A DNA stretch of 45,034 nt from IMG/VR virus record IMGVR_UViG_3300045988_055078, positions 1 through 45,034 of that record; one strand, given 5' to 3'. Made by a program: the position numbers and the translations under genes. Below, in pieces: positions 1,658 to 37,654 of the stretch; the stretch's first letter is position 1; every line of letters starts with the position of its first letter. Source of the stretch: a virus. The notes below the pieces were generated by a model, which saw nothing but the letters and a program-made list of their open reading frames with translations, searched no databases and had not been told where the DNA came from.

Positions 1658-2494
1658 TTATAATCCCAATTTCTGCCGCATTCCCGCCCATGCGTCCGCT
1701 GCACCGGCTCTTCTGCGGCTCTTCCCGGTGACCTGGATAGGCAGACACCGCTCGATTAGGCGGTCATAGATTCGCTGCTTGGCAATGTCCTGCTGCTGCC
1801 CCAGTTCGGCGGTGGACAGGTTGGTGGTCACCACCATGGGCACCCCCGCCGTGTAGCGGGCATTTACGACCTTGTAGACCATCTCGTCCATGTAATCGGT
1901 TTTGCGTTCGATCCCGAGATCGTCCAGCACGAGCAGATCGTACTTGCACAGGTGGGCCAAATACTCCGCTTTGTCCTCAGCTGACCACAGCTCGTCCGAA
2001 ATCGTAGCGAAGTTTGTCATTTTTCCCCGGAAACCGGCATCAATTATGGCATTTGCGATGCACCCGGCAAGAAACGTTTTTCCGGTGCCGACCGGTCCGT
2101 AAAGCAGCAAGCCCGTCCCGTTTCGCAAGTTCTCGGAAAAGTTATCCGCATACTTCCAGCAAGCCTGAACAATCTTCTGGTCACCGGTTTTGTCATCGGC
2201 CGCGAATGTGGCGTTTATCAGATTTTCAAACCCACGGAAGCATATTTCGCGCCTTCTCTTGATTTCTGAACGCTTTTCCTGATTTTTCTGGACATCGTAC
2301 TCCGTTGGGCAATTACACCAGCACTTGACTTTCATGGGCATTGCACCCGGGAATGGTGGGTTGATGATTGTTTCGCGTTTTCCACCGCAGATCGTGCAGT
2401 GCTTCAGGCCGTCTTCCGCCAGATACTCGGTGTCCGGATCGGCGGCTCGTGCTGCCCTTTCCGCAAGTGCTTCCAACACTCCTCCGTCATTCAC
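1658..2494 (-). CDS. DnaC/IstB-like AAA+ helicase loader with N-terminal Cys-rich region
   Basis: Walker A LLLYGPVGTGKTFLAGCIAN and Walker B DLLVLDDLG. N-terminal CTICGG..CWCNC. ATGA overlap with the upstream organizer gene. Confidence 0.85.
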   Translation of the reverse strand: MNDGGVLEALAERAARAADPDTEYLAEDGLKHCTICGGKRETIINPPFPGAMPMKVKCWCNCPTEYDVQKNQEKRSEIKRRREICFRGFENLINATFAADDKTGDQKIVQACWKYADNFSENLRNGTGLLLYGPVGTGKTFLAGCIANAIIDAGFRGKMTNFATISDELWSAEDKAEYLAHLCKYDLLVLDDLGIERKTDYMDEMVYKVVNARYTAGVPMVVTTNLSTAELGQQQDIAKQRIYDRLIERCLPIQVTGKSRRRAGAADAWAGMRQKLGL

Positions 2495-14837: not shown

Positions 14838-15548
14838 TTACTTACCCAGCAGCTTCGCCCAGGTTTTCGGGCCGCAGATGCCGTCGGCATCCAGACCGTT
14901 GTCCTGCTGGAATTTCCGGATGGCCTTCACGGTGGCGTCGCCGCAAATGCCGTCGGTGCCGTACCAGCCGATGTCGTAGCCCCGGTCCTTCAGGGCCGCC
15001 TGAAGCGTTCTGACGGCGTTTCCTTCGCTGTATTTTTCGACCATGATCGTTTCTACCATGATGGTTTCCTCCTTGTTCTGTGCGGGTGTAGGCTTTACGG
15101 CGCCGCCCTTGATGCGGTCAAACGGGAAATTTTTGCCCGGGCAAGCGGTGCCCTCTACGGATACCAGCTTGTGGGTGGTTACGACGGCCTTGGGATACTT
15201 GGCCTTGAGATAGGCCACCAGTTCTGCACCTGCCTTGATCTGAGCCTCCGGCATGGTGTCCGTTTCAAAATTTCCTTCAAAGCAGACGCCGATGCTGTTC
15301 CAGTTCTGGCCCTGCACATGGGCACCAATGGTGCCTTCCGGTCGGCCACGGTAGACGCTGCCGTCCTTGCGGACAAAAAAGTGATACCCGATGCCCGCCC
15401 AGCCGTTGGCAACGTGCCAGCGGTGGACGTCATCGGCGGTGCAGCTGGACGCCGCCGCATGGTGCAAGATGATCTTATCGGTGGCCTGCCGTTTGCTCAG
15501 GCTGCCGTGCCACTGGTAGGATTTTTCGATGATGTGCATGTTACTCAT
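14838..15548 (-). CDS. Endolysin: N-acetylmuramoyl-L-alanine amidase (amidase_2/PGRP) with C-terminal PG_binding_1 domain
   Basis: IILHHAAA..HVANGWAGIGYHFFVRKDGSVYRGRP..GAHVQGQNWNSIGVCFEG. C-terminal RTLQAALKDRGYDIGWYGTDGICGDATVKAIRKFQQDNGL. Confidence 0.9.
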   Translation of the reverse strand: MSNMHIIEKSYQWHGSLSKRQATDKIILHHAAASSCTADDVHRWHVANGWAGIGYHFFVRKDGSVYRGRPEGTIGAHVQGQNWNSIGVCFEGNFETDTMPEAQIKAGAELVAYLKAKYPKAVVTTHKLVSVEGTACPGKNFPFDRIKGGAVKPTPAQNKEETIMVETIMVEKYSEGNAVRTLQAALKDRGYDIGWYGTDGICGDATVKAIRKFQQDNGLDADGICGPKTWAKLLGK

Positions 15549-29631: not shown

Positions 29632-29707
29632 TGGCGGGCGGAGCAGGATTCGAACCTGCGACGTCGTGATTAACAGTCACGCGCTCTACCGTCTTAGCTA
29701 TCTACCC
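29632..29707 (-). tRNA. tRNA-Asn (anticodon GTT)
   Basis: 76-nt cloverleaf folded by hand: acceptor GGGTAGA/TCCGCCC (one A-C mismatch), D arm GCTA/GAGC, anticodon arm CGTGA-CTGTTAA-TCACG, T arm GCAGG-TTCGAAT-CCTGC, encoded CCA. Confidence 0.85.
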
Positions 29708-29790: not shown

Positions 29791-29866
29791 TGGAGCCGCC
29801 AGACGGAATCGAACCGTCAACCTTCCGATTACAAATCGGATGCACTGCCAATTGTGCTACAACGGC
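29791..29866 (-). tRNA. tRNA-Thr (anticodon TGT)
   Basis: 76-nt cloverleaf: acceptor GCCGTTG/TGGCGGC (three G-U pairs), D arm GCAC/GTGC, anticodon arm TCCGA-TTTGTAA-TCGGA, T arm GACGG-TTCGATT-CCGTC, encoded CCA. Confidence 0.85.
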
Positions 29867-29946: not shown

Positions 29947-30105
29947 TTATCTATTTAAGCATTTTCTTGTAATTGCAATGACCTTGATCTCTCCGTGCTC
30001 CACGCGCAATTCAACAACCTTCCCCTGCCGGATCGTGTTATTGATAAGCTGAATCTGTTCATCCGTCAGATTCAGGCGGCGCGCCGGATTGACTTCCTGT
30101 TCCAC
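29947..30105 (-). CDS. Possible small ORF (52 aa, GTG start) overlapping the portal 3' end
   Basis: GGGGGTG, 5 nt, GTG. Translation (M)EQEVNPARRLNLTDEQIQLINNTIRQGKVVELRVEHGEIKVIAITRKCLNR has protein-like composition. Confidence 0.3.
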   Translation of the reverse strand: MEQEVNPARRLNLTDEQIQLINNTIRQGKVVELRVEHGEIKVIAITRKCLNR

Positions 30106-31498
30106 CGGATACACCCCCGTTTTGATTGGCCCGCTGAGCGGCTTCCCGCTCCTGCTGGGCCATATATTCCATGCTCATGCGATAAGCAAGCTGCGGATCG
30201 GAAAAGAGGCCGCTGTGCGTGAACGCAAGCTCCGGCGCAATTTTCTCACACCCGAGCATCATGGTCAAAACGCTTGCCTTCTGCGCGATGTTCTCATAAT
30301 TTCGGCGGGTAAACCGGATTTCCAGTGCCGACAGCTTCAGGCTCAGGTTCCCCATGTCCTGACAGATTCGCAGCACCAGCTTCAGGAATTCCTTCTCGGA
30401 TTTCTTAAATACCAGTTCTGCGTCTTTGGCTCTCGCTTCGGCGGCAGACCAGCCGTCCCGCATGATGACCGCAGACCCGGTATCAGAAGTGGAGGACCCG
30501 CCGTTTCGATTTGGCATCCCGCAGATGGTCAACACGGTGTTATACATGCTGTCCACGAGCGTCTGCGTCTGCGTTTGGTTCATCTCGGACGTCAGATACT
30601 GGATTTCCGCTTTCAAGGTGGAATCAATATCTTTGAACTTGATGCCGCCCAGGTCCCGCAGCTTTTCGAAATCGTCTTCCGAAATGTCCACGTTGTGAAA
30701 AAGCATCAGCGCCTGAACGAACTGTTCCACGCCGTCAATCCGGTTGCTCTCCACCATATTGATTGCATCCAGCAGAGGAATGACGATTTCAAAAGCGCCA
30801 AGCCTCGCCTGATTGGCGGGGTATTCGATAATCGGAATGCCGAAAATCTGATCTTCTGCGTGGATAACTGACCATGTATTCCACACCTCGTAGTATCGGT
30901 TCTCCGTCCAGCAGGAAAAGACGATGGTCCCATCCTCCCGCAGAACGTAGCGGACGGCCATCATTGGCTTGTGTCCCAGCCCCACAGAGTAAATAACGAA
31001 GGTATAGCGCGGATCAAGCGTGAAGATTTCAAAGGGCGCTTCGTCTGCGTCTACGTCCGCCAGCGCATCCGGCAAAACCATCCGATATGAGGTGCCGCAG
31101 ATGTTTCCCCAATCGACCAGCTCTTTGTCTTTGGTTGGCTTGTCCTCAGAAAGCATATAATCGTTCAGATGCAGGACCTCGGAAGCAATGATGTCATCGC
31201 TGCCACGGCTGACATATTGGATCGGTTCGCCGATCTGGTAGCCGGTCTTAAACGAGACAATCTCGTTGGCCCGGTTCTCCACGACTTGGTTATTGATCTC
31301 CGGTCGGACCTGCTTCTCCCGATAAAGGATCGGCTGATCCCCTCGGTAGTACCAATACAGATAATCGATATCTGCCTGATTCATCAAATGGACAGTCTGT
31401 GCCTTTTGCAGCACGTCAATCACGTTGGCATCCGTGATTTTCGGCACTTCCGTATAAATAACCCGGCGTCCGAACAATTTACGGCTCTGCAACGGCAT
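30059..31498 (-). CDS. Portal protein (SPP1 gp6-like)
   Basis: DYLYWYYRGDQPILYREKQVRPEINNQVVENRANEIVSFKTGY.. Start at 31498 follows GGAGGTGAA. Confidence 0.9.
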   Translation of the reverse strand: MPLQSRKLFGRRVIYTEVPKITDANVIDVLQKAQTVHLMNQADIDYLYWYYRGDQPILYREKQVRPEINNQVVENRANEIVSFKTGYQIGEPIQYVSRGSDDIIASEVLHLNDYMLSEDKPTKDKELVDWGNICGTSYRMVLPDALADVDADEAPFEIFTLDPRYTFVIYSVGLGHKPMMAVRYVLREDGTIVFSCWTENRYYEVWNTWSVIHAEDQIFGIPIIEYPANQARLGAFEIVIPLLDAINMVESNRIDGVEQFVQALMLFHNVDISEDDFEKLRDLGGIKFKDIDSTLKAEIQYLTSEMNQTQTQTLVDSMYNTVLTICGMPNRNGGSSTSDTGSAVIMRDGWSAAEARAKDAELVFKKSEKEFLKLVLRICQDMGNLSLKLSALEIRFTRRNYENIAQKASVLTMMLGCEKIAPELAFTHSGLFSDPQLAYRMSMEYMAQQEREAAQRANQNGGVSGGTGSQSGAPPESDG

Positions 31499-31725
31499 TT
31501 CACCTCCATTTATGGATTCTATCTTCACATTTATCATTTTACCACGCAAGCAACGCTTTGTATAGATAACAATAGTTAATTAAATCCATGCCATTAAACC
31601 ATAACAAAGATTATATTTACATTTCAGCCGTAAAATGATATAATTCAGGCGTGGTTGTTGAGTGTTTCATAAATACCTCCTATTCCGATTTTCTACCTTC
31701 CTATTACCCCTTTTCTTTGATGGGT

Positions 31726-31840: not shown

Positions 31841-32056
31841 TTACTGCACTTCTTCGAGTGCATCCGCAATGCTTTTGATCTGCTCCGTGACAGATGTCAG
31901 CACATTGCAGTACATATCGTACCGGAGAGCACTGAGCCGCAGCATATCCGCCTCGTCGTCATATTCCATCTCAAACATATCCGAAAGCATCGTAGCCGTG
32001 GACTGTGCAATTTTGACGCTTACCCAGATATCGTCCAGTGTTGCCGTCTTCGTCAT
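31841..32056 (-). CDS. Hypothetical acidic protein (71 aa)
   Basis: ATGA-type overlap with the ant stop. No motif recognised. Confidence 0.55.
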   Translation of the reverse strand: MTKTATLDDIWVSVKIAQSTATMLSDMFEMEYDDEADMLRLSALRYDMYCNVLTSVTEQIKSIADALEEVQ

Positions 32057-32763
32057 GCCTTCTTATCCTCCCTCAGAAACTTATTCAGGAAAAACGCCTG
32101 GCCCTTGCCGGTGACCTTCGGGGTCTTGCTGACCGACGTATGGCCGTCGCTATGGCTGATGACCGTCTCTTTGATCCGGAAAAGCCCCTGCTCCATGCTG
32201 GACTGCGTCGGCATATTGTAATCCGTTCCGTTGCGCTTGATTAAGTACCCGTTGTCCCGCATCCACTGGAACAGCCGCCGCTCGCCCATGCCGACGCCGT
32301 TCTGCCGTAGAATCTTTGCCAGCTCACCAATCAGAACCGTGCTGCTGGATGCCGCCACACTGTCAGCGAACAAGACCTTCGGGGCATCGGCTTGGACTTT
32401 GGATTCCAGGGTCTTAATTCTCCGATCTGCAATCTGCAAGGCTCTTGCCATGACCTTTTCAGGGCTATTCCAGTCCCGTTCCAGCTGTAGGAAGTACTGT
32501 CGTGCCATCTTTCCTTTTTCATTGCGCTGGAGCATACAAATCTCCTTTGCCATGTCGATGGTGACGGCGGCATCCTGTCCACGGCGGCCTCCGGTACTTT
32601 CGGTCAAAAATGTCCGAAAGTCCTGCCCTTCCGAAAATCCAAATTCGCACATTCTCTGAAACCAATGCCGGAAATCCGTGCTGACGTCCAGAAACTCATG
32701 CAACTCTCTTGCGGAAACAGCGGGCTTCTCCCCGCTGTAATCAACCTTGATTAAATCTGTCAC
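32053..32763 (-). CDS. Antirepressor, AntA-like N-terminal domain plus KilAC-like C-terminal domain
   Basis: VSARELHEFLDVSTDFRHWFQRMCEFGFSEGQDF..IDMAKEICMLQRNEKGKMARQYFLQLE, then ..LIGELAKILRQNGVGMGERRLFQWMRDNGYL. GTG start after AAGGAG. Confidence 0.85.
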   Translation of the reverse strand: MTDLIKVDYSGEKPAVSARELHEFLDVSTDFRHWFQRMCEFGFSEGQDFRTFLTESTGGRRGQDAAVTIDMAKEICMLQRNEKGKMARQYFLQLERDWNSPEKVMARALQIADRRIKTLESKVQADAPKVLFADSVAASSSTVLIGELAKILRQNGVGMGERRLFQWMRDNGYLIKRNGTDYNMPTQSSMEQGLFRIKETVISHSDGHTSVSKTPKVTGKGQAFFLNKFLREDKKA

Positions 32764-32787
32764 AAATTAGCTCCTTTCAAAATTCAT

Positions 32788-32816
32788 TTGACAAGGAACC
32801 GAATCTAATGTACAAT
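32788..32816 (+). promoter_or_regulatory. Near-consensus plus-strand promoter inside the RHH-ant intergenic region
   Basis: TTGACA, 17 nt, TACAAT. Confidence 0.6.
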
Positions 32817-32822
32817 GAATTT

Positions 32823-32897
32823 TAGATAGGGTTTCCCTGTCGCTGTTTTGAGGGATTGACGAACTGTGGTAGGGGCTGTCAATCCCTTATTTCTTTT
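32823..32897 (+). ncRNA. Predicted ~75-nt antisense sRNA (promoter to intrinsic terminator)
   Basis: Predicted start ~7 nt after the -10 box. Terminator GGGATTGAC-17 nt-GTCAATCCC (32852-32886) followed by TTATTTCTTTT. Antisense to the ant leader and the 3' end of the RHH gene. Confidence 0.45.
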
Positions 32898-33066
32898 CCA
32901 ATTCGGTCTTTACCCTTTGGATTCCAAGCCGGATGATGTCACTTTTTGTTTTTCCAAGCTTTTCACAGCAGAAATCTAAATCTTTCATTGTCTGCTGGTC
33001 AGCTCTTATTTTCAGCTGAATGTCCTTTGGGCTTTCGACCTTTGGCCTGCCTGTACGGGGCGACAT
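32887..33066 (-). CDS. Ribbon-helix-helix (Arc/CopG-like) protein, 59 aa (below the ORF-track cutoff)
   Basis: GAGGTGA, 4 nt, ATG. MSPRTGRPKVESPKDIQLKIRADQQTMKDLDFCCEKLGKTKSDIIRLGIQRVKTELEKK. Paralog of 33941..34126. Confidence 0.7.
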   Translation of the reverse strand: MSPRTGRPKVESPKDIQLKIRADQQTMKDLDFCCEKLGKTKSDIIRLGIQRVKTELEKK

Positions 33067-33084
33067 TAAATCACCTCACTTAAT

Positions 33085-33124
33085 GTGTACACGCTTATTA
33101 TAGCGTGTACACACAAAATGTCAA
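33085..33124 (-). promoter_or_regulatory. Promoter with flanking palindromic operators for the 59-aa RHH gene
   Basis: Minus strand: TTGACA, 16 nt, TATAAT. The -10 box is bracketed by GTGTACACGC and GCGTGTACAC, each containing the palindrome GTGTACAC. Confidence 0.6.
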
Positions 33125-33149
33125 GTTCTTTCTTGAAATTATTGATTCT

Positions 33150-33431
33150 CTACCAGCGGCGGAACTTCTTGGCAGAGGGGAGCTTGCTGGAAAGCACAAG
33201 GGAATAGAGGCCGGATTCATTGATAAGTGCAATGGGTGTCCCGTTGACGGTGAACGAATCGTTCACCGTTTTATCTTCTTCATCTACATGGTCACGGACA
33301 GCTTTCTGTGGATTGCTGTATCCCAGCACCTGCGCTACATCCTTTCCGGCCAGCCAATATTCGCCATCAATCTCAACTCTGCGAATAGAGCCAAATTCCT
33401 CGTTTCTAAATACCTTGATTTCGTTGTTCAT
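33150..33431 (-). CDS. Bro-N domain protein, ends abruptly after the conserved ..KKFRRW
   Basis: FGSIRRVEIDGEYWLAGKDVAQVLGY..INESGLYSLVLSSKLPSAKKFRRW. The paralog at 8215..8958 continues past this point. Confidence 0.8.
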   Translation of the reverse strand: MNNEIKVFRNEEFGSIRRVEIDGEYWLAGKDVAQVLGYSNPQKAVRDHVDEEDKTVNDSFTVNGTPIALINESGLYSLVLSSKLPSAKKFRRW

Positions 33432-33542
33432 AAATTTTCCTCCTTGATTTTTTCCCGGAGGAATGATAAACTATATGTACCATCCCTCTGGGTTGGTGTT
33501 GTTTGGAGTGTCCACAACTTCTTGGCGGGAGAGTGGACACTC

Positions 33543-33791
33543 TCACTGTTCTTCGGAATCTCCGAACATCTGCTTCTGAATCTGTTCAAGCAATGCCTGC
33601 GCCTGATTCAGCTGTTCACGGCTAATAGCGTTTTCTGCCATGAACTCCGGCTTCCCGGAATCTCTGTCACGGTCATCCAAAATAAGCTTCGTGATGTAAT
33701 CCTTGTACGTCAAATCCAGGTTCGCAATTCGTCTGCGAACGAACTTATACAGCGTTTCGTCCACACGGATAGAAATCGTCTTATCTGCCAC
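33543..33791 (-). CDS. Ribbon-helix-helix-like protein (82 aa, GTG start)
   Basis: AAAGGAGG, 7 nt, GTG. (M)ADKTISIRVDETLYKFVRRRIANLDLTYKDYITKLIL. Upstream minus-strand promoter TTTACA, 17 nt, TAGAAT. Confidence 0.6.
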   Translation of the reverse strand: MADKTISIRVDETLYKFVRRRIANLDLTYKDYITKLILDDRDRDSGKPEFMAENAISREQLNQAQALLEQIQKQMFGDSEEQ

Positions 33792-33876
33792 TTTTGTGCC
33801 TCCTTTCTGCAAATATTCTATCAAAAAATCCCGATTTTGTAAAGTTAATTTATATTCACGAAAACCCCCTTTTTGG

Positions 33877-33930
33877 AATCCAGAAGAAACGATTGAAATA
33901 TTATCGTTTCTTCTGGATTTTCTTGTTTTT
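33877..33930 (+). terminator. Perfect 17-bp hairpin with T-run on the plus strand
   Basis: AATCCAGAAGAAACGAT, 9 nt, ATCGTTTCTTCTGGATT, then TTCTTGTTTTT. Confidence 0.5.
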
Positions 33931-33940
33931 CGGAACCGAA

Positions 33941-34126
33941 TTATTCGGATTTCCGCTTTTCTTTTTCCAAAAGAAGATGAACTCCACGTCTGACAGCTTC
34001 TCCTTTTGTGATTTCATTCCGAAAACAGTATTCTTGAAGTTTTGCTTCTGTTTCGGAATCAAGCCTAACGCTGAAGCTGAAAGATTTGGGGTTATCCACT
34101 TTCGGTCTCCCAGTACGAGGGGCCAC
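33941..34126 (-). CDS. Ribbon-helix-helix (Arc/CopG-like) protein, 61 aa
   Basis: GAGGTGA, 4 nt, GTG. MAPRTGRPKVDNPKSFSFSVRLDSETEAKLQEYCFRNEITKGEAVRRGVHLLLEKE. Confidence 0.75.
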   Translation of the reverse strand: MAPRTGRPKVDNPKSFSFSVRLDSETEAKLQEYCFRNEITKGEAVRRGVHLLLEKEKRKSE

Positions 34127-34192: not shown

Positions 34193-35854
34193 TTAGAACG
34201 GCCTTGCAAAAACCGAAATCCGGTTCCCGTCCAGCGACCGCACCATGTTCATTGCCATGGTCAGACTGTCCGGTGCATCGTCATGAGCCGTTTTCTTGAA
34301 CATCGTGTATGAAAACACATTCTGCATAAACAAGGAGTAGGCCTTGCTGCGCTTTCCACTCTCCAAAAACACCATGTTCTCCCGAATATCCGGTGCTTTA
34401 TCGAAGATTCTTTGGAACTTTGCCTTATCCGTTGGAGCTGCTTTTGTGGTGATATTCAGCCGATATCCCTTTGCCTTCAGCTGTTCCTCCACGCCCTCTT
34501 TGTAGTCCATCGTTGCTTTGGTGGCTTCAAATTGTGCAGCCTGCACATTGTGCTTCATAATAGCCGACACCAGCAGCGGCTGTGTGACGCGCTTATCTCC
34601 GTCATCATACACGACGTCGTGAACGTAAATATCGTTGCCATACTGATAGCATACCGGAGCCGCCACAAAGTCACCGCCTCCAAACGCCGGATCAACGGCC
34701 ATGAAGATTCGGTCCGGCTCTCCATCCGGCAGGGTTCCGTTATAGTACCGGAAATCCGCAGGGCTGAACAAAGCGCCGTCTCTTTCGATCGGCTGCCCCA
34801 TATACTGGGCGGTCCAGGAGGCCATATCGTTATTCCGTTCAAATGACGCACGCCGCTGCCGATAATATTCCGTACTGAATCCGACACCGTATTCATAGCA
34901 GAACTGACTTTCGTCATTTTCATCCAACGCCGGTAGATTCATGATCTCGAAACGCCGGTTACGGAACTTTTCATCGTTTTGCAGCAGTTCCATTCGGATA
35001 CCCGCCGGGTCCACCATGGACCATCTGGTGCCGCACCACAGAATTTTCGCCTTTTCTTTTGCACGAGGTAACAGATTGTTGTCCACTTTAGACCATGCCG
35101 ACATCAGCCGGTCCTTGTTCAATGCTTCCTCAATGCCGCCGATCAGGTCGTCCGAAATTTCAAAACCGTTGCAGTCACAGGCTCCGTTCAGCGTCCCGTA
35201 TAAGGAACGGCATGTAAGCGACGGATACCTTTTCCTCCGGTCAATGTTCAGCGTTTCGTCTTTTGCGTTGGTTTCCACCAACTTTGCGTTTGGAAAAACA
35301 TCCCGCCACAGATAGGTTGTCGGGTCTTGCAGAATCTCCAGGACGCCACGATAGAACGCTGCTGTAATCACGTCAGAATAGGCCGAATACAGGTTCGACG
35401 CCTCGCTATTGCGCCCGATCAGCCACGTTGTAAAGAACATGAGAATTGACGTTTTACCGACCCGCGGCGGCATCGAAATAAACAATTCATCCAGCTTATC
35501 ATCCGCCAGCCTTTGTAAATTCTGTACCACTTTCCCCATAATCCGTTTTCTCGGCAGATAAAACCGTTCTGATGCCTTCCGGTCAATTTCCAAATACGTC
35601 AGATAGCAGTCAAAATCATCCGGCGCTTCAAACAGCAAGCTTTTCCGCCACAGTTCATAGAAACTGCTCTCCTGCCCGTTCTCCGCCTGCGCCAGAATCT
35701 TACCTCGCAGCAAGTTGTTTGTCTTGTGAGCCGCTGCATGGTCCTCTGACGCCCAATCCCGGCACAAAGAAAACAAGTCCTGATAGGCATCATAATCCGC
35801 AGGCAGACGCGCTATCGCTTTCAGAATCGATTCGGAAATCCTTTCGTAATCCAT
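34193..35854 (-). CDS. terL: Terminase large subunit
   Basis: Walker A ELFISMPPRVGKTSILMFF. C-terminal nuclease-like region. Start at 35854 follows AGGAGG. Confidence 0.9.
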   Translation of the reverse strand: MDYERISESILKAIARLPADYDAYQDLFSLCRDWASEDHAAAHKTNNLLRGKILAQAENGQESSFYELWRKSLLFEAPDDFDCYLTYLEIDRKASERFYLPRKRIMGKVVQNLQRLADDKLDELFISMPPRVGKTSILMFFTTWLIGRNSEASNLYSAYSDVITAAFYRGVLEILQDPTTYLWRDVFPNAKLVETNAKDETLNIDRRKRYPSLTCRSLYGTLNGACDCNGFEISDDLIGGIEEALNKDRLMSAWSKVDNNLLPRAKEKAKILWCGTRWSMVDPAGIRMELLQNDEKFRNRRFEIMNLPALDENDESQFCYEYGVGFSTEYYRQRRASFERNNDMASWTAQYMGQPIERDGALFSPADFRYYNGTLPDGEPDRIFMAVDPAFGGGDFVAAPVCYQYGNDIYVHDVVYDDGDKRVTQPLLVSAIMKHNVQAAQFEATKATMDYKEGVEEQLKAKGYRLNITTKAAPTDKAKFQRIFDKAPDIRENMVFLESGKRSKAYSLFMQNVFSYTMFKKTAHDDAPDSLTMAMNMVRSLDGNRISVFARPF

Positions 35855-36508
35855 CCGTACTCCTCCTTTACAAAATAAAATGGGCCGCTCATGCGTAACG
35901 CAAAAGCGACCCTTTGGCCTTTCTCCCACCTGCCGTGGAAGATTGCTATCTCGTTTTTATTCTATCATGTTATTGCTTCGATATCAACACGCGCCCGCAG
36001 GGCGCTTTTATAAAATTTATTTTGCCCTTTTTGTTTTTTCGCGATTTTTTCGGGGACCGCTTTTTGTTGGCGCGAGTGGTAGGAGGGTGTGCCGCGCGCC
36101 TGGGCCCGGCCCTATATCCCCCGCCCCCGGGTGGCCAGATTGGCGCGGAGGCCGGAGCCGCAGCCCCGTGCGGTATCTTCGGGGCGCTCCGCTGGCTGCA
36201 AAGTGCCGCCGGGCAATGTGTCCGCGCATGACGCACACATACAAGGACAGACAGCAAACGCGATTCCGCGAACGCAACAAAATCAAATTTTGGTTGCGTT
36301 AGAATGGGCAAATATATCTTTGTAAATGGCATTTTATGCGTAAATGTTCGGAGAACTCCGTGTATGCGGGTGTTTTCGCGTCCGTCTATTGTGGACCGGT
36401 ACTCTGTCCGCGCATCGTGGAAAATGTGGCTATTATGTGCGCTGCAAAAACACATAGAAAACCGAACCGCAGCCCGGAAAATAAATCAAAAAAATCTTTG
36501 AAAACCTC

Positions 36509-36761: not shown

Positions 36762-36929
36762 ATGCCAGACAGCAAAGCCAAAAGCGCATGGGAGCGGGAA
36801 AACGTGTTAAAAATCACGCTCAAGATTAACCGCAACCAAACGCCGGAGCTTTTCGCCCTACTGGAAAAGGCCGAAAGCAAATCCGGAGCCGCGCGCGAAC
36901 TCATGCAAAAAGCAATTAAAAGGGAATAA
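36762..36929 (+). CDS. Small RHH-like protein (55 aa)
   Basis: AAAGGGGG upstream of the ATG. ..NVLKITLKINRNQTPELFALLEKAESKSGAARELMQKAIK fits a strand-helix-helix pattern. Confidence 0.55.
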   Translation: MPDSKAKSAWERENVLKITLKINRNQTPELFALLEKAESKSGAARELMQKAIKRE

Positions 36930-37066
36930 AAAGCCCGGCCAGCGCTGGAACCGCCGACCGGGCAACCCCGAAAACGTTTGAAAAACCAACCTTCGCAGGA
37001 ATCCGGGGAAAACAATTATACCCGGGATTCCTCCGAAAGTCAAGAAATTTATGGAGGAATTGAAAA

Positions 37067-37654
37067 ATGGCTAATCTTTACAATCTCGACGGAATCGTTA
37101 CCGAGCTGAAGAAGCGCAACGCGCAGGACCGCGCAATCCTGGCCGCATGGGAGTCGGTAACCTATCCCACCAAGAAGGACGGAAAGCCCTTCGCACGGAT
37201 GGCGCAGAACATCAGCGGCGCGAAGTACGCCGCCGAGGCCTACACCCTGCAGCCGGGTGAAATGGCAGTAACCGTCACCACCTGGGGCGCTGATTATGGC
37301 GTCGGCTACGTTTCCGACGATCTCCACGCATACACCACCGCCGACCGCATGACGGACGCCCAGCAGGGCAAACCCGGCAATCTGCTGCCGAAGGTGCCCG
37401 GCCTAAAACAGATTTATCTTTTTGACCTGGACGACATCAAATCCGCCATCGCGGCACGGTGTGACCAGCTGCGGCAGCGGATCGCCACCCGGGAAAACCA
37501 AATCAAGCAGGCGCACGCGGCCTATAGCACATTCTATGCGGCTTACGGGGCTGCCCTGGATCAGCTCGCAGCCATGACAAGCAAGGACTTCGGCGGCGCG
37601 ACGCTCTACCATGCTATTCTGGATACCGTCACCGCGCGGTATCCGCACTGTTGA
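37067..37654 (+). CDS. Hypothetical protein (195 aa)
   Basis: GGAGGAA, 7 nt, ATG. No motif recognised. Confidence 0.65.
   Translation: MANLYNLDGIVTELKKRNAQDRAILAAWESVTYPTKKDGKPFARMAQNISGAKYAAEAYTLQPGEMAVTVTTWGADYGVGYVSDDLHAYTTADRMTDAQQGKPGNLLPKVPGLKQIYLFDLDDIKSAIAARCDQLRQRIATRENQIKQAHAAYSTFYAAYGAALDQLAAMTSKDFGGATLYHAILDTVTARYPHC

Follow-up and report, generated by a model that had tools for sequence, protein, structure and literature searches.

Antirepressors decide whether a prophage stays silent. To our knowledge, the way in which they are controlled is understood for just a few phages of Gram-negative bacteria (P22, P1, and N15). In the immI region of P22, an antisense RNA, sar, is made between the genes of the small repressor Arc, which is a ribbon-helix-helix (RHH) protein, and of the antirepressor Ant. 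Proteins and antisense RNAs are also found in plasmid control systems. In pIP501 and pAMbeta1, of the inc18 group, the repressor CopR, which is not an RHH protein and is not co-transcribed with the target, is combined with RNAIII, which causes premature termination, and pT181 has a countertranscript without a co-transcribed RHH gene. In pMV158, the countertranscript RNAII (~50 nt, one hairpin) is said, in work of 2015 attributed to López-Aguilar, to inhibit repB translation, its 5′ tail pairing near the initiation region, with no three-part switch described. In this plasmid (pMV158/pLS1), CopG is an RHH auto-repressor co-transcribed with repB, and the convergent promoter PctII makes RNAII (PMC5717011). 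The pT181 mechanism is a countertranscript-driven attenuator (PMC3753616, citing Novick 1989 and Brantl and Wagner 2000), and the antisense RNAs of pT181 and pIP501 induce transcriptional attenuation (PMC5415839). The present analysis deals with a predicted antisense RNA unit in IMG/VR virus record IMGVR_UViG_3300045988_055078, whose positions 1 to 45,034 are referred to here as the window. The unit lies opposite the leader that separates a putative RHH repressor gene from ant, an antirepressor gene that constitutes the cargo of the cassette. The unit was correctly observed in the first place, and its antisense RNA gene is very probably real in the evolutionary sense. As for its function, the preferred reading, with a probability of roughly 0.6, is that the RNA would act in a pT181-like manner through indirect closure of the ribosome-binding site (RBS) of the cargo gene and/or through attenuation.

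The antisense promoter of the window (P_as) is located on the plus strand, all the genes adjoining the unit being on the minus strand, and matches the sigma-70 consensus at 11 of 12 positions. The RNA predicted from it, whose 5′ end was taken as the seventh nucleotide past the -10 hexamer and whose 3′ end was placed within the U-run, contains two stem-loops (SL1 and SL2) and folds at -30.1 kcal/mol, with a z of -4.5 and none of 200 shuffled sequences folding as well. SL2 is the terminator; its 9-bp core is formed by GGGATTGAC (32852-32860) and GTCAATCCC (32878-32886), its apical loop is AACUGUGGUAGGGGC (32862-32876), and the complement of the RHH stop codon forms part of the stem base. A sequence-only reading of this DNA had described a promoter, a hairpin, and a T-run here, and all three are borne out at the coordinates it gave; its 9-bp hairpin persists as the core of SL2, although RNAfold lengthens it to 13 pairs and adds SL1 (32825-32841) to the RNA. 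The same reading had the RNA overlapping the last RHH codons, and the T-run is indeed the complement of the stop codon and of the codons for E-K-K; it had also assigned the U-run to the plus strand only, in agreement with the sense strand, which continues after the same hairpin as TCAAAACAGCG / UCAAAACAG, without a U-run. Its proposal of a discrete ~75-nt antisense RNA gene opposite the RHH-ant intergenic region and devoid of any open reading frame (ORF) is upheld by the position of the promoter and by the covarying stems, strand-specific G:U pairs, and AAA bias described below. A 37-aa GTG ORF at 32866-32979 starts inside the hairpin and extends beyond the terminator.

Promoter-like and terminator-like sequences are common, 3.9 and 3.1 sites, respectively, being expected per 3 kb, and their juxtaposition could in principle be a matter of chance. 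However, when both strands were scanned for promoters matching at least 10/12 positions, with a hairpin of at least 8 bp plus a T-run 10-70 nt further on, 3 linked units were found in the whole 45-kb window, against the 0.03 +/- 0.18 expected from first-order Markov simulations. The comparative data refute a chance pairing, since more than 100 independent homologous loci, differing in sequence, have such a unit in the equivalent position. The probability left to this explanation is negligible.

The homologous loci were fetched by means of the RHH protein (80 from IMG/VR and 80 from GTDB species genomes), and the comparative set comprised 118 unique elements in 90 sequence clusters. Among the viral loci, the pattern TTGnnn-17(16/18)-TAnnnT is found opposite the RHH gene in 53 of 54 unique downstream regions, with a spacer that rarely departs from 17 nt, a -10 that is usually TG-extended, and a -35 located 83-121 nt (mostly 91-102) past the RHH stop. 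The loci from genomes form an independent set, in which 73 of 89 RHH genes have an antisense promoter under a strict filter (promoter of at least 9/12, located 80-125 nt from the RHH stop). Most of the hosts named for these genomes belong to the Oscillospiraceae (Faecalibacterium, Ruminococcus), Lachnospiraceae (Blautia, Dorea, Acetatifactor), Peptococcaceae, Christensenellaceae, and Negativicutes. The cassette also occurs in cultured phages, including phiCD211 of C. difficile, where the two genes are annotated as 'transcriptional repressor' (NC_029048, 24695-24871) and 'anti-repressor' (from 24994) and separated by a 122-nt gap, as well as in the Streptococcus mitis phage MismyG and the Streptococcus satellite Javan171; phiCDIF1296T of C. 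difficile is a further carrier. When the intergenic region was compared with the fetched loci by blastn, the RHH 3′ end alone was matched, which indicates that it is the architecture that is conserved and not the primary sequence; a blastn search of INPHARED with the locus gave no record spanning the intergenic region. Moreover, a covariance model of the terminator hairpin, R1, has 60 matches in 400 kb at E <= 0.01, all of them on the strand opposite the RHH gene and with coordinates consistent with the RHH stops, and its sole match in the window is at 32811-32898 on the plus strand (58.4 bits).

The upstream regions of Ant homologues (L001-L080) are mostly without an antisense unit and the cargo is variable; the unit accompanies the RHH gene and not ant. 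Together, promoter, RHH gene, and leader make up a regular control cassette of roughly 0.3 kb, which is widespread in Firmicutes phages and of which the locus is one copy. RHH-antisense cassettes are often arranged in tandem arrays of two or three (L162, L163, L167, L168, L177, L180, L210, L237, L095, and L245), with a separate promoter and separate operator-like repeats for each cassette and with RNA stems that diverge between them. Among 74 representative cargo genes, the long proteins are of antirepressor type (Phage_pRha, Bro-N, ORF6N, and AntA with ORF6C or KilAC), and no Pfam or PHROG family was matched by the short ones, of 45-95 aa. By eye, many of the short cargo proteins (L081-L240, e.g., L109, L118, L139, L158, and L162) share a C-terminal F..GF..A..LL-like motif; they could be small antirepressors or something else. 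A type I or II toxin-antitoxin module was considered and rejected, as the cargoes are antirepressor-type proteins (Rha, Bro-N, ORF6N, AntA/KilAC) or familyless proteins of 45-95 aa that lie beyond a structured leader of ~120 nt.

The strand on which the structure is selected can be recognized by its G:U pairs, since a G:U pair on one strand corresponds to a C:A mismatch on its complement. In the stretch covered by the RNA, 48 unique sequences contain 200 G:U pairs when read as antisense and 26 when read as sense, and their mean folding energy is -27.5 kcal/mol on the antisense strand versus -19.5 kcal/mol on the sense strand (Wilcoxon p = 2e-9). When the terminator stems of the 90 cluster representatives are measured from the RHH stop codon, the uninterrupted stem has a median length of 12 bp in the antisense direction versus 9 bp in the sense direction (p = 7.5e-14). 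The stems comprise 81 distinct sequences among the 90 representatives, with pairing retained, and the covariation score of the R1 alignment is 0.361, versus 0.194 in column shuffles, none of the 500 shuffles being as high and slid registers also scoring lower. Covariation in homologous loci, which had been put forward as a check of the sequence-only reading, is thus present. Nearly all homologues of the RNA are predicted to have the small 5′ hairpin. The apical loop of the terminator carries a recurrent motif, most commonly AACUUUGGUCGGGG and in the window CUGUGGUAGGGG, and the YUNR U-turn signature is present in 71 of the 90 antisense loops versus 36 of the 90 sense loops. The coding sequence that overlaps the terminator tail is also biased. 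Within the last four RHH codons, lysine is encoded by AAA 137 times and by AAG 18 times, versus 356 and 191 times in the rest of the gene (Fisher p = 4.5e-9), and the last 12 coding nt of the RHH genes are 68% A; the tail of the RHH protein is under constraint to encode the U-tract of the terminator. At the level of sequence, these comparisons show selection on an antisense transcript whose terminator would be a working one.

The same data bear on the view that no antisense RNA is made, and that the hairpins act in cis within the sense mRNA, for instance by stabilising the 3′ end of the RHH message or as a leader to which a protein binds, with promoter hexamers as by-products. The sense strand does fold significantly (z = -3.4), and one of the leader helices described below, H2, is without strand bias. 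However, a purely cis-acting role leaves aside that the terminator span is ~8 kcal/mol stabler on the antisense strand, where the G:U pairs are concentrated, that the U-run exists on this strand only and is maintained by the AAA codon bias, and that -35 and -10 hexamers at 17-nt spacing with TG extensions are retained across diverged loci. This explanation is therefore regarded as highly improbable.

The leader between the RHH gene and the cargo gene contains three segments whose complementarity suggests how the RNA could act. Every member of the family has an inverted repeat around the antisense -10 which, in the sense mRNA, forms the arms A and A′, and A′ is also complementary to the Shine-Dalgarno (SD) and start region (A′′) of whichever cargo gene comes next. 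Arm A can pair with A′ (helix H2) or A′ with A′′ (helix H3). In the window, the H2 duplex has an energy of -20.3 kcal/mol (z = -6.2) and the H3 duplex of -14.9 (z = -3.0), the latter reaching -18 kcal/mol as a hairpin that buries AAGGAG and GUG. Across the family, the matched arms of H2 average -17.8, compared with -8.5 when arms are exchanged between loci (swapped controls) and -6.3 in composition-preserving shuffles (mean z -5.3; z < -1.64 in 73/74 loci), and those of H3 average -13.4, compared with -9.1 and -6.8, respectively (mean z -3.1; z < -1.64 in 60/74); as a hairpin, H3 averages -12.4 versus -7.8 in swapped controls. The SD core is wholly within H3 in 71 of the 74 loci, and the start codon is also covered in about half of them. 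H2 is the stabler helix in 61 of the 74 loci, and in the full leader of the window, the minimum free energy structure holds H3 and the centroid holds H2, so that two alternative folds are available. When the region covered by the RNA was forced to be unpaired, the mean SD accessibility over 38 loci decreased from 0.42 to 0.29, and that in the window from 0.25 to 0.03. The anatomy of the unit, its conservation, the strand under selection, and the co-evolution of A, A′, and A′′ are established by computation.

As the sequence-only reading had noted, the antisense RNA misses the ant RBS, starting near 32823, with the SD at 32771-32776. That reading had concluded that the only possible mechanisms were transcriptional interference or processing, a conclusion that does not hold, because the co-evolving arrangement of anti-anti-SD, anti-SD, and SD in the leader permits the RBS to be occluded indirectly. 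A direct pairing of the 5′ region of the RNA with the SD region was considered separately and rejected: its energy is -10.0 versus -8.4 in swapped controls, a weak excess, and -7.3 in the window, and it was judged to be a by-product of the similarity between A and A′′. Convergent transcriptional interference or RNase III cleavage of the duplex of ~70 bp, by which the ant portion of the mRNA would be detached or made less stable, could nevertheless be the whole effect of a real antisense RNA, without any refolding of the leader. The two promoters, P_as and that of the RHH gene, face each other across ~270 bp with near-consensus sequences, and the leader together with the RHH 3′ end offers the RNA ~75 nt of full complementarity, a possible substrate of RNase III; such effects could also run alongside the switch. 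By themselves, they leave unexplained why A′ is complementary both to A and to the SD and start of the cargo gene (z = -5.3 and -3.1, above swapped controls), and why the SD is located inside H3 in almost all the loci, so that interference or cleavage as the sole mechanism is considered unlikely.

It could also be proposed that the RNA is a positive regulator, if H2 and the U-rich complement of the -35 hexamer (UUUCAA) constitute a sense terminator that the antisense RNA relieves by binding to arm A. In many homologues, UUUUCAAG or UUUCAAG directly follows H2, and the RNA would disrupt this helix. Nevertheless, the loops of H2 are long (9-13 nt), the U-tracts are short (3-5) and, in the window, absent (GUCAAAUGAAUUUUG), and the release of A′ would close the RBS at once, with no gain for the cargo gene. 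The direction of such an antitermination would moreover be opposite to that of all three known analogues, and it is judged very unlikely. Under the preferred reading, i.e., closure of the RBS and/or attenuation, any termination would take place after H3, where a U-run is frequent but not universal; it is present, for instance, in L166, L226, L143, L157, and L158, and the window has UAAUUUGUG. Counts of these U-runs are confounded by helices that extend across the start codon.

The following sequence of events is thus proposed. A strong promoter with flanking repeats would drive the RHH gene and the cargo gene on one transcript, and the RHH protein would probably repress it, while a convergent sigma-70-type promoter in the intergenic leader would make an untranslated countertranscript of ~75 nt. 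The nascent leader would first fold H2, leaving the SD free. The antisense RNA, whose perfect complementarity takes in the first leader hairpin and arm A and leaves out A′ and A′′, would probably dock by its conserved YUNR-containing loop and spread over arm A. Once arm A is sequestered, A′ would be released and H3 could form, burying the SD and the start codon and blocking the translation of ant; where a U-run comes after H3, transcription termination may occur too. Auto-repression by the RHH protein and the antisense RNA would together act as a double lock on the antirepressor, to which transcriptional interference and RNase III cleavage may add. On these sequence features, P_as would fire, the regulation would be directed against the cargo gene, and it would operate through translational block or attenuation.

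Several observations weigh against this proposal or limit its reach. The promoter, the ends of the RNA, and the regulation are all predictions, and the evidence is wholly computational. The homologues are related by descent, which inflates the p-values. The R1 alignment is paired in 65% of its cells and its stem geometry varies, and a MAFFT alignment of the RNAs is paired in 54% and out of structural register; in view of these variable stem and loop lengths, the analyses were carried out per sequence, anchored at the stop codon, with swapped and shuffled controls. H3 is at least as stable as H2 in ~13 of the 74 loci and competes with it in the window, so that the RBS may be largely closed even without the antisense RNA. 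The drop in SD accessibility is also seen in swapped controls (0.55 to 0.39), and this test thus backs the co-evolution of the leader with the SD more than the switch itself. The lack of strand bias in the G:U pairs of H2 makes a role of the inverted repeat at the DNA level possible. Finally, the RHH assignment rests on a Pfam match below the gathering score (RHH_1, E = 0.0036), on weak PDB profile matches (ParG, E = 0.21; CopG, E = 0.88), and on a single-sequence AlphaFold model that shows two helices but lacks a strand and, RHH proteins being obligate dimers, is uninformative.

Table 1. Positions of the cassette features in the window.
Feature	Position	Strand	Basis or remark
Antisense promoter P_as, -35 hexamer TTGACA	32788-32793	+	sequence
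P_as, -10 hexamer TACAAT	32811-32816	+	17-nt spacer from -35
Antisense RNA, ~75 nt (predicted)	32823-32897	+	fold and covariance-model match
SL1, small 5′ stem-loop GAUAGGG UUU CCCUGUC	32825-32841	+	U:G pair valid on + strand only
SL2, terminator stem-loop, 13 bp	32849-32889	+	RNAfold, two G:U pairs
Terminator U-run TTATTTCTTTT	32887-32897	+	complement of RHH stop and C-terminal E-K-K codons
Arm A GACAGGGAAACCCUAUCUA, purine-rich, SD-like	32823-32841	-	exact complement of the 5′ part of the antisense RNA
Arm A′ CAUUAGAUUCGGUUCCUUGUCAA, pyrimidine-rich anti-SD	32788-32810	-	same DNA as P_as spacer and -35
A′′ UUUGAAAGGAGCUAAUUUGUGA, SD AAGGAG and ant GTG start	32760-32781	-	pairs with A′
RHH-ant operon promoter	-35 TTGACA 33124-33119; -10 TATAAT 33102-33097	-	12/12
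Palindrome GTGTACAC, two copies flanking the operon -10	33085-33092; 33105-33112	-	presumed RHH operator
Putative RHH repressor gene, 59 aa	32887-33066	-	N-terminus MSPRTGRP
ant SD, AAGGAG on mRNA (CTCCTT on +)	32771-32776	-	
ant GTG start codon	32761-32763	-	
ant, cargo gene, 236-aa antirepressor with AntA and KilAC domains	32053-32763	-	Pfam

The protein encoded by the putative RHH gene also matches PHROG 876, annotated as 'transcriptional repressor' (E = 1e-14), and its N-terminus, M(S/A)PRTGRP, is invariant in the alignment of the protein family. A sense promoter of at least 9/12 is present in 87 of 88 homologues, with its -35 ~60 nt before the RHH start and repeats flanking its -10. The two copies of GTGTACAC presumably constitute the operator to which the RHH protein would bind, repressing the promoter of its own operon. 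The product of ant is recognized by Pfam (AntA 1.8e-24, ANT 2.3e-37). A second RHH gene of the M(S/A)PRTGRP family, at 33941-34126 on the minus strand, is without an antisense unit; in its place comes a perfect hairpin of 17 bp (~33873-33915) with a T-rich tail on the plus strand, and past it a sense promoter (33843-33815) serves the next gene, which has a weak NikA-like match. The RHH/antirepressor cassettes (31841-34126) are located between the genes of the large terminase (34193-35929) and the portal protein (30059-31549), and those of MismyG (L244) adjoin a minor capsid gene. As for P22 immI, the cassettes of the window and of MismyG are found among structural genes and not in the lysogeny module. 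Just downstream of the portal gene, there are two tRNA genes on the minus strand, at 29635-29707 and 29794-29866 (Rfam tRNA, 63-66 bits).

Two more sites in the window resemble promoter-to-terminator units. One of them (36930-37043, minus strand), which lies between the plus-strand ORFs 36762-36929 and 37067-37654, repeats the layout of the antisense unit in reverse orientation. Its promoter consists of TTGACT at 37043 and TATAAT at 37020-37015; the unit continues with a 12-bp GC-rich hairpin (36963-36933) and a U-run right after the stop of a 55-aa ORF, and it contains three mutually complementary segments, GCAGGAATCCGGGG (36995-37008), CCCGGGATTCCTCC (37022-37035), and the SD GGAGGAATT (37053-37061). 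The 55-aa protein has no Pfam match, hhalign detected no relationship to the RHH profile, and one homologue was found in IMG/VR. The other is a promoter-like site on the minus strand (35987-35959, 10/12), followed by a hairpin and T-run (35912-35882). It immediately precedes the position where the large terminase gene probably starts, and may represent a leader, an attenuator, or a small RNA. Elsewhere in a related locus, L196, positions 1918-1979 (minus strand) match the S. aureus cis-regulatory RNA TEG147 of Rfam with 33.4 bits against a gathering score of 56.1, probably by chance.

The principle of joining a repressor to a countertranscript has long been known. Full-text literature searches found no description of a cassette combining an RHH gene with a countertranscript switch, and no description was seen of promoter DNA that doubles as an anti-SD or of coding sequence that doubles as a terminator tail. 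It is therefore tentatively suggested, as a possibility falling somewhat short of even odds, that these cassettes are a previously unrecognised, very widespread, and portable family with dual-role DNA, whose RNA shares descent with that of pT181 and which gates antirepressors and small proteins. Such a cassette would be the Gram-positive counterpart of P22-type antirepressor control and, given its occurrence at more than 100 loci, in gut Clostridia, C. difficile phiCD211, and streptococcal prophages and satellites, it could shape prophage induction and superinfection immunity in medically relevant communities. The RNAs would form a new antisense RNA family, absent from Rfam at threshold, and possibly an evolutionary bridge between the copy-control countertranscripts of plasmids and the immunity regions of phages. 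If the distinct terminator stems prove orthogonal, they would also represent a ready library of RNA regulators like those engineered from pT181.

Regarding the closest described systems, P22 immI resembles the window in having small repressor and antirepressor genes under one promoter, with an auto-repression that the repeats flanking the -10 make probable here, and in an untranslated intergenic antisense RNA of ~70 nt whose terminator overlaps the repressor stop codon. In the P22 record, sar spans 15021-15090 and its terminator 15021-15058, arc ends at 15022, and ant starts at 15091; Psar is inside ant (15097-15125), so that sar reaches 1 nt before the ant start and masks the RBS directly. 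In the window, by contrast, the promoter is upstream of the RBS, the RNA ends 46 nt short of the SD, and the host is Gram-positive. No match to the Rfam sar family (RF00262) reaches the gathering threshold anywhere in the window, and the region 32500-33300 has none even at E <= 10; BLASTP gave no alignment of the RHH protein with P22 Arc and a best E of 6.2 for Ant against P22 Ant. The sar parallel drawn by the sequence-only reading stands as regards architecture and, by analogy, function. A sar-family RNA, similarity to Arc and Ant, and coverage of the RBS are not shared, and the cassette is best described as an analogue of Arc-sar-Ant and not a member, no homology having been found.

The RNA has a closer likeness in pT181. 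The Rfam model ctRNA_pT181 (RF00242) matches the window over its full length at 32810-32902 (28 bits, E = 0.17) and 7 of 12 related elements, also at full length, with 33.6-45.3 bits and on the correct strand and in the correct place; the gathering score of 56 is missed by the window and by its relatives, and pT181 itself scores 105.6 bits. Both have a two-stem-loop antisense RNA ending in a terminator and made from a promoter in the leader upstream of the target RBS, and the pT181 leader likewise contains segments I AAGGAGUCGCUCAC (SD-like), III GGGUGAGCGAUUCCUUAA (anti-SD), and IV UUAAGGAGUCG (SD by the start), followed by AUUUUUUAUG, with the promoter of the countertranscript between the target and III. 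In pT181, binding of the RNA to the upstream segment lets the last two segments pair, and the same logic is proposed for the window. The recognition loop of pT181, CAAACUUUGGUCAGGG (L241, 4120-4140), is nearly identical to AACUUUGGUCGGGG of the family, a likeness that may reflect either common descent or convergence on a fast-pairing U-turn loop. However, the target is the rep gene of a rolling-circle plasmid in pT181 and a phage AntA/KilAC antirepressor in the window, where, moreover, the bound segment that competes for the anti-SD corresponds to the 5′ region of the RNA and not to an arm of the main hairpin, the antisense promoter itself supplies the anti-SD from its spacer and -35, and a U-run past H3 is not universal, so that translational block may replace or accompany termination.

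The protein layer is better matched by pMV158, which has, like the window with its putative RHH gene and predicted RNA, a single strong promoter for repressor and target, a countertranscript from a convergent promoter directed at the inter-cistronic region, and a Gram-positive host, and where protein and RNA are two joint layers of control, as proposed for the cassette of the window; nevertheless, its cargo is a Rep protein, and CopG and the RHH protein of the window have only the marginal profile match given above. The inc18 plasmids likewise combine a protein repressor with an antisense RNA that acts in the leader of the regulated gene. By these analogies, the cassette appears as the joining of the protein layer of P22 and pMV158 to the RNA logic of pT181.

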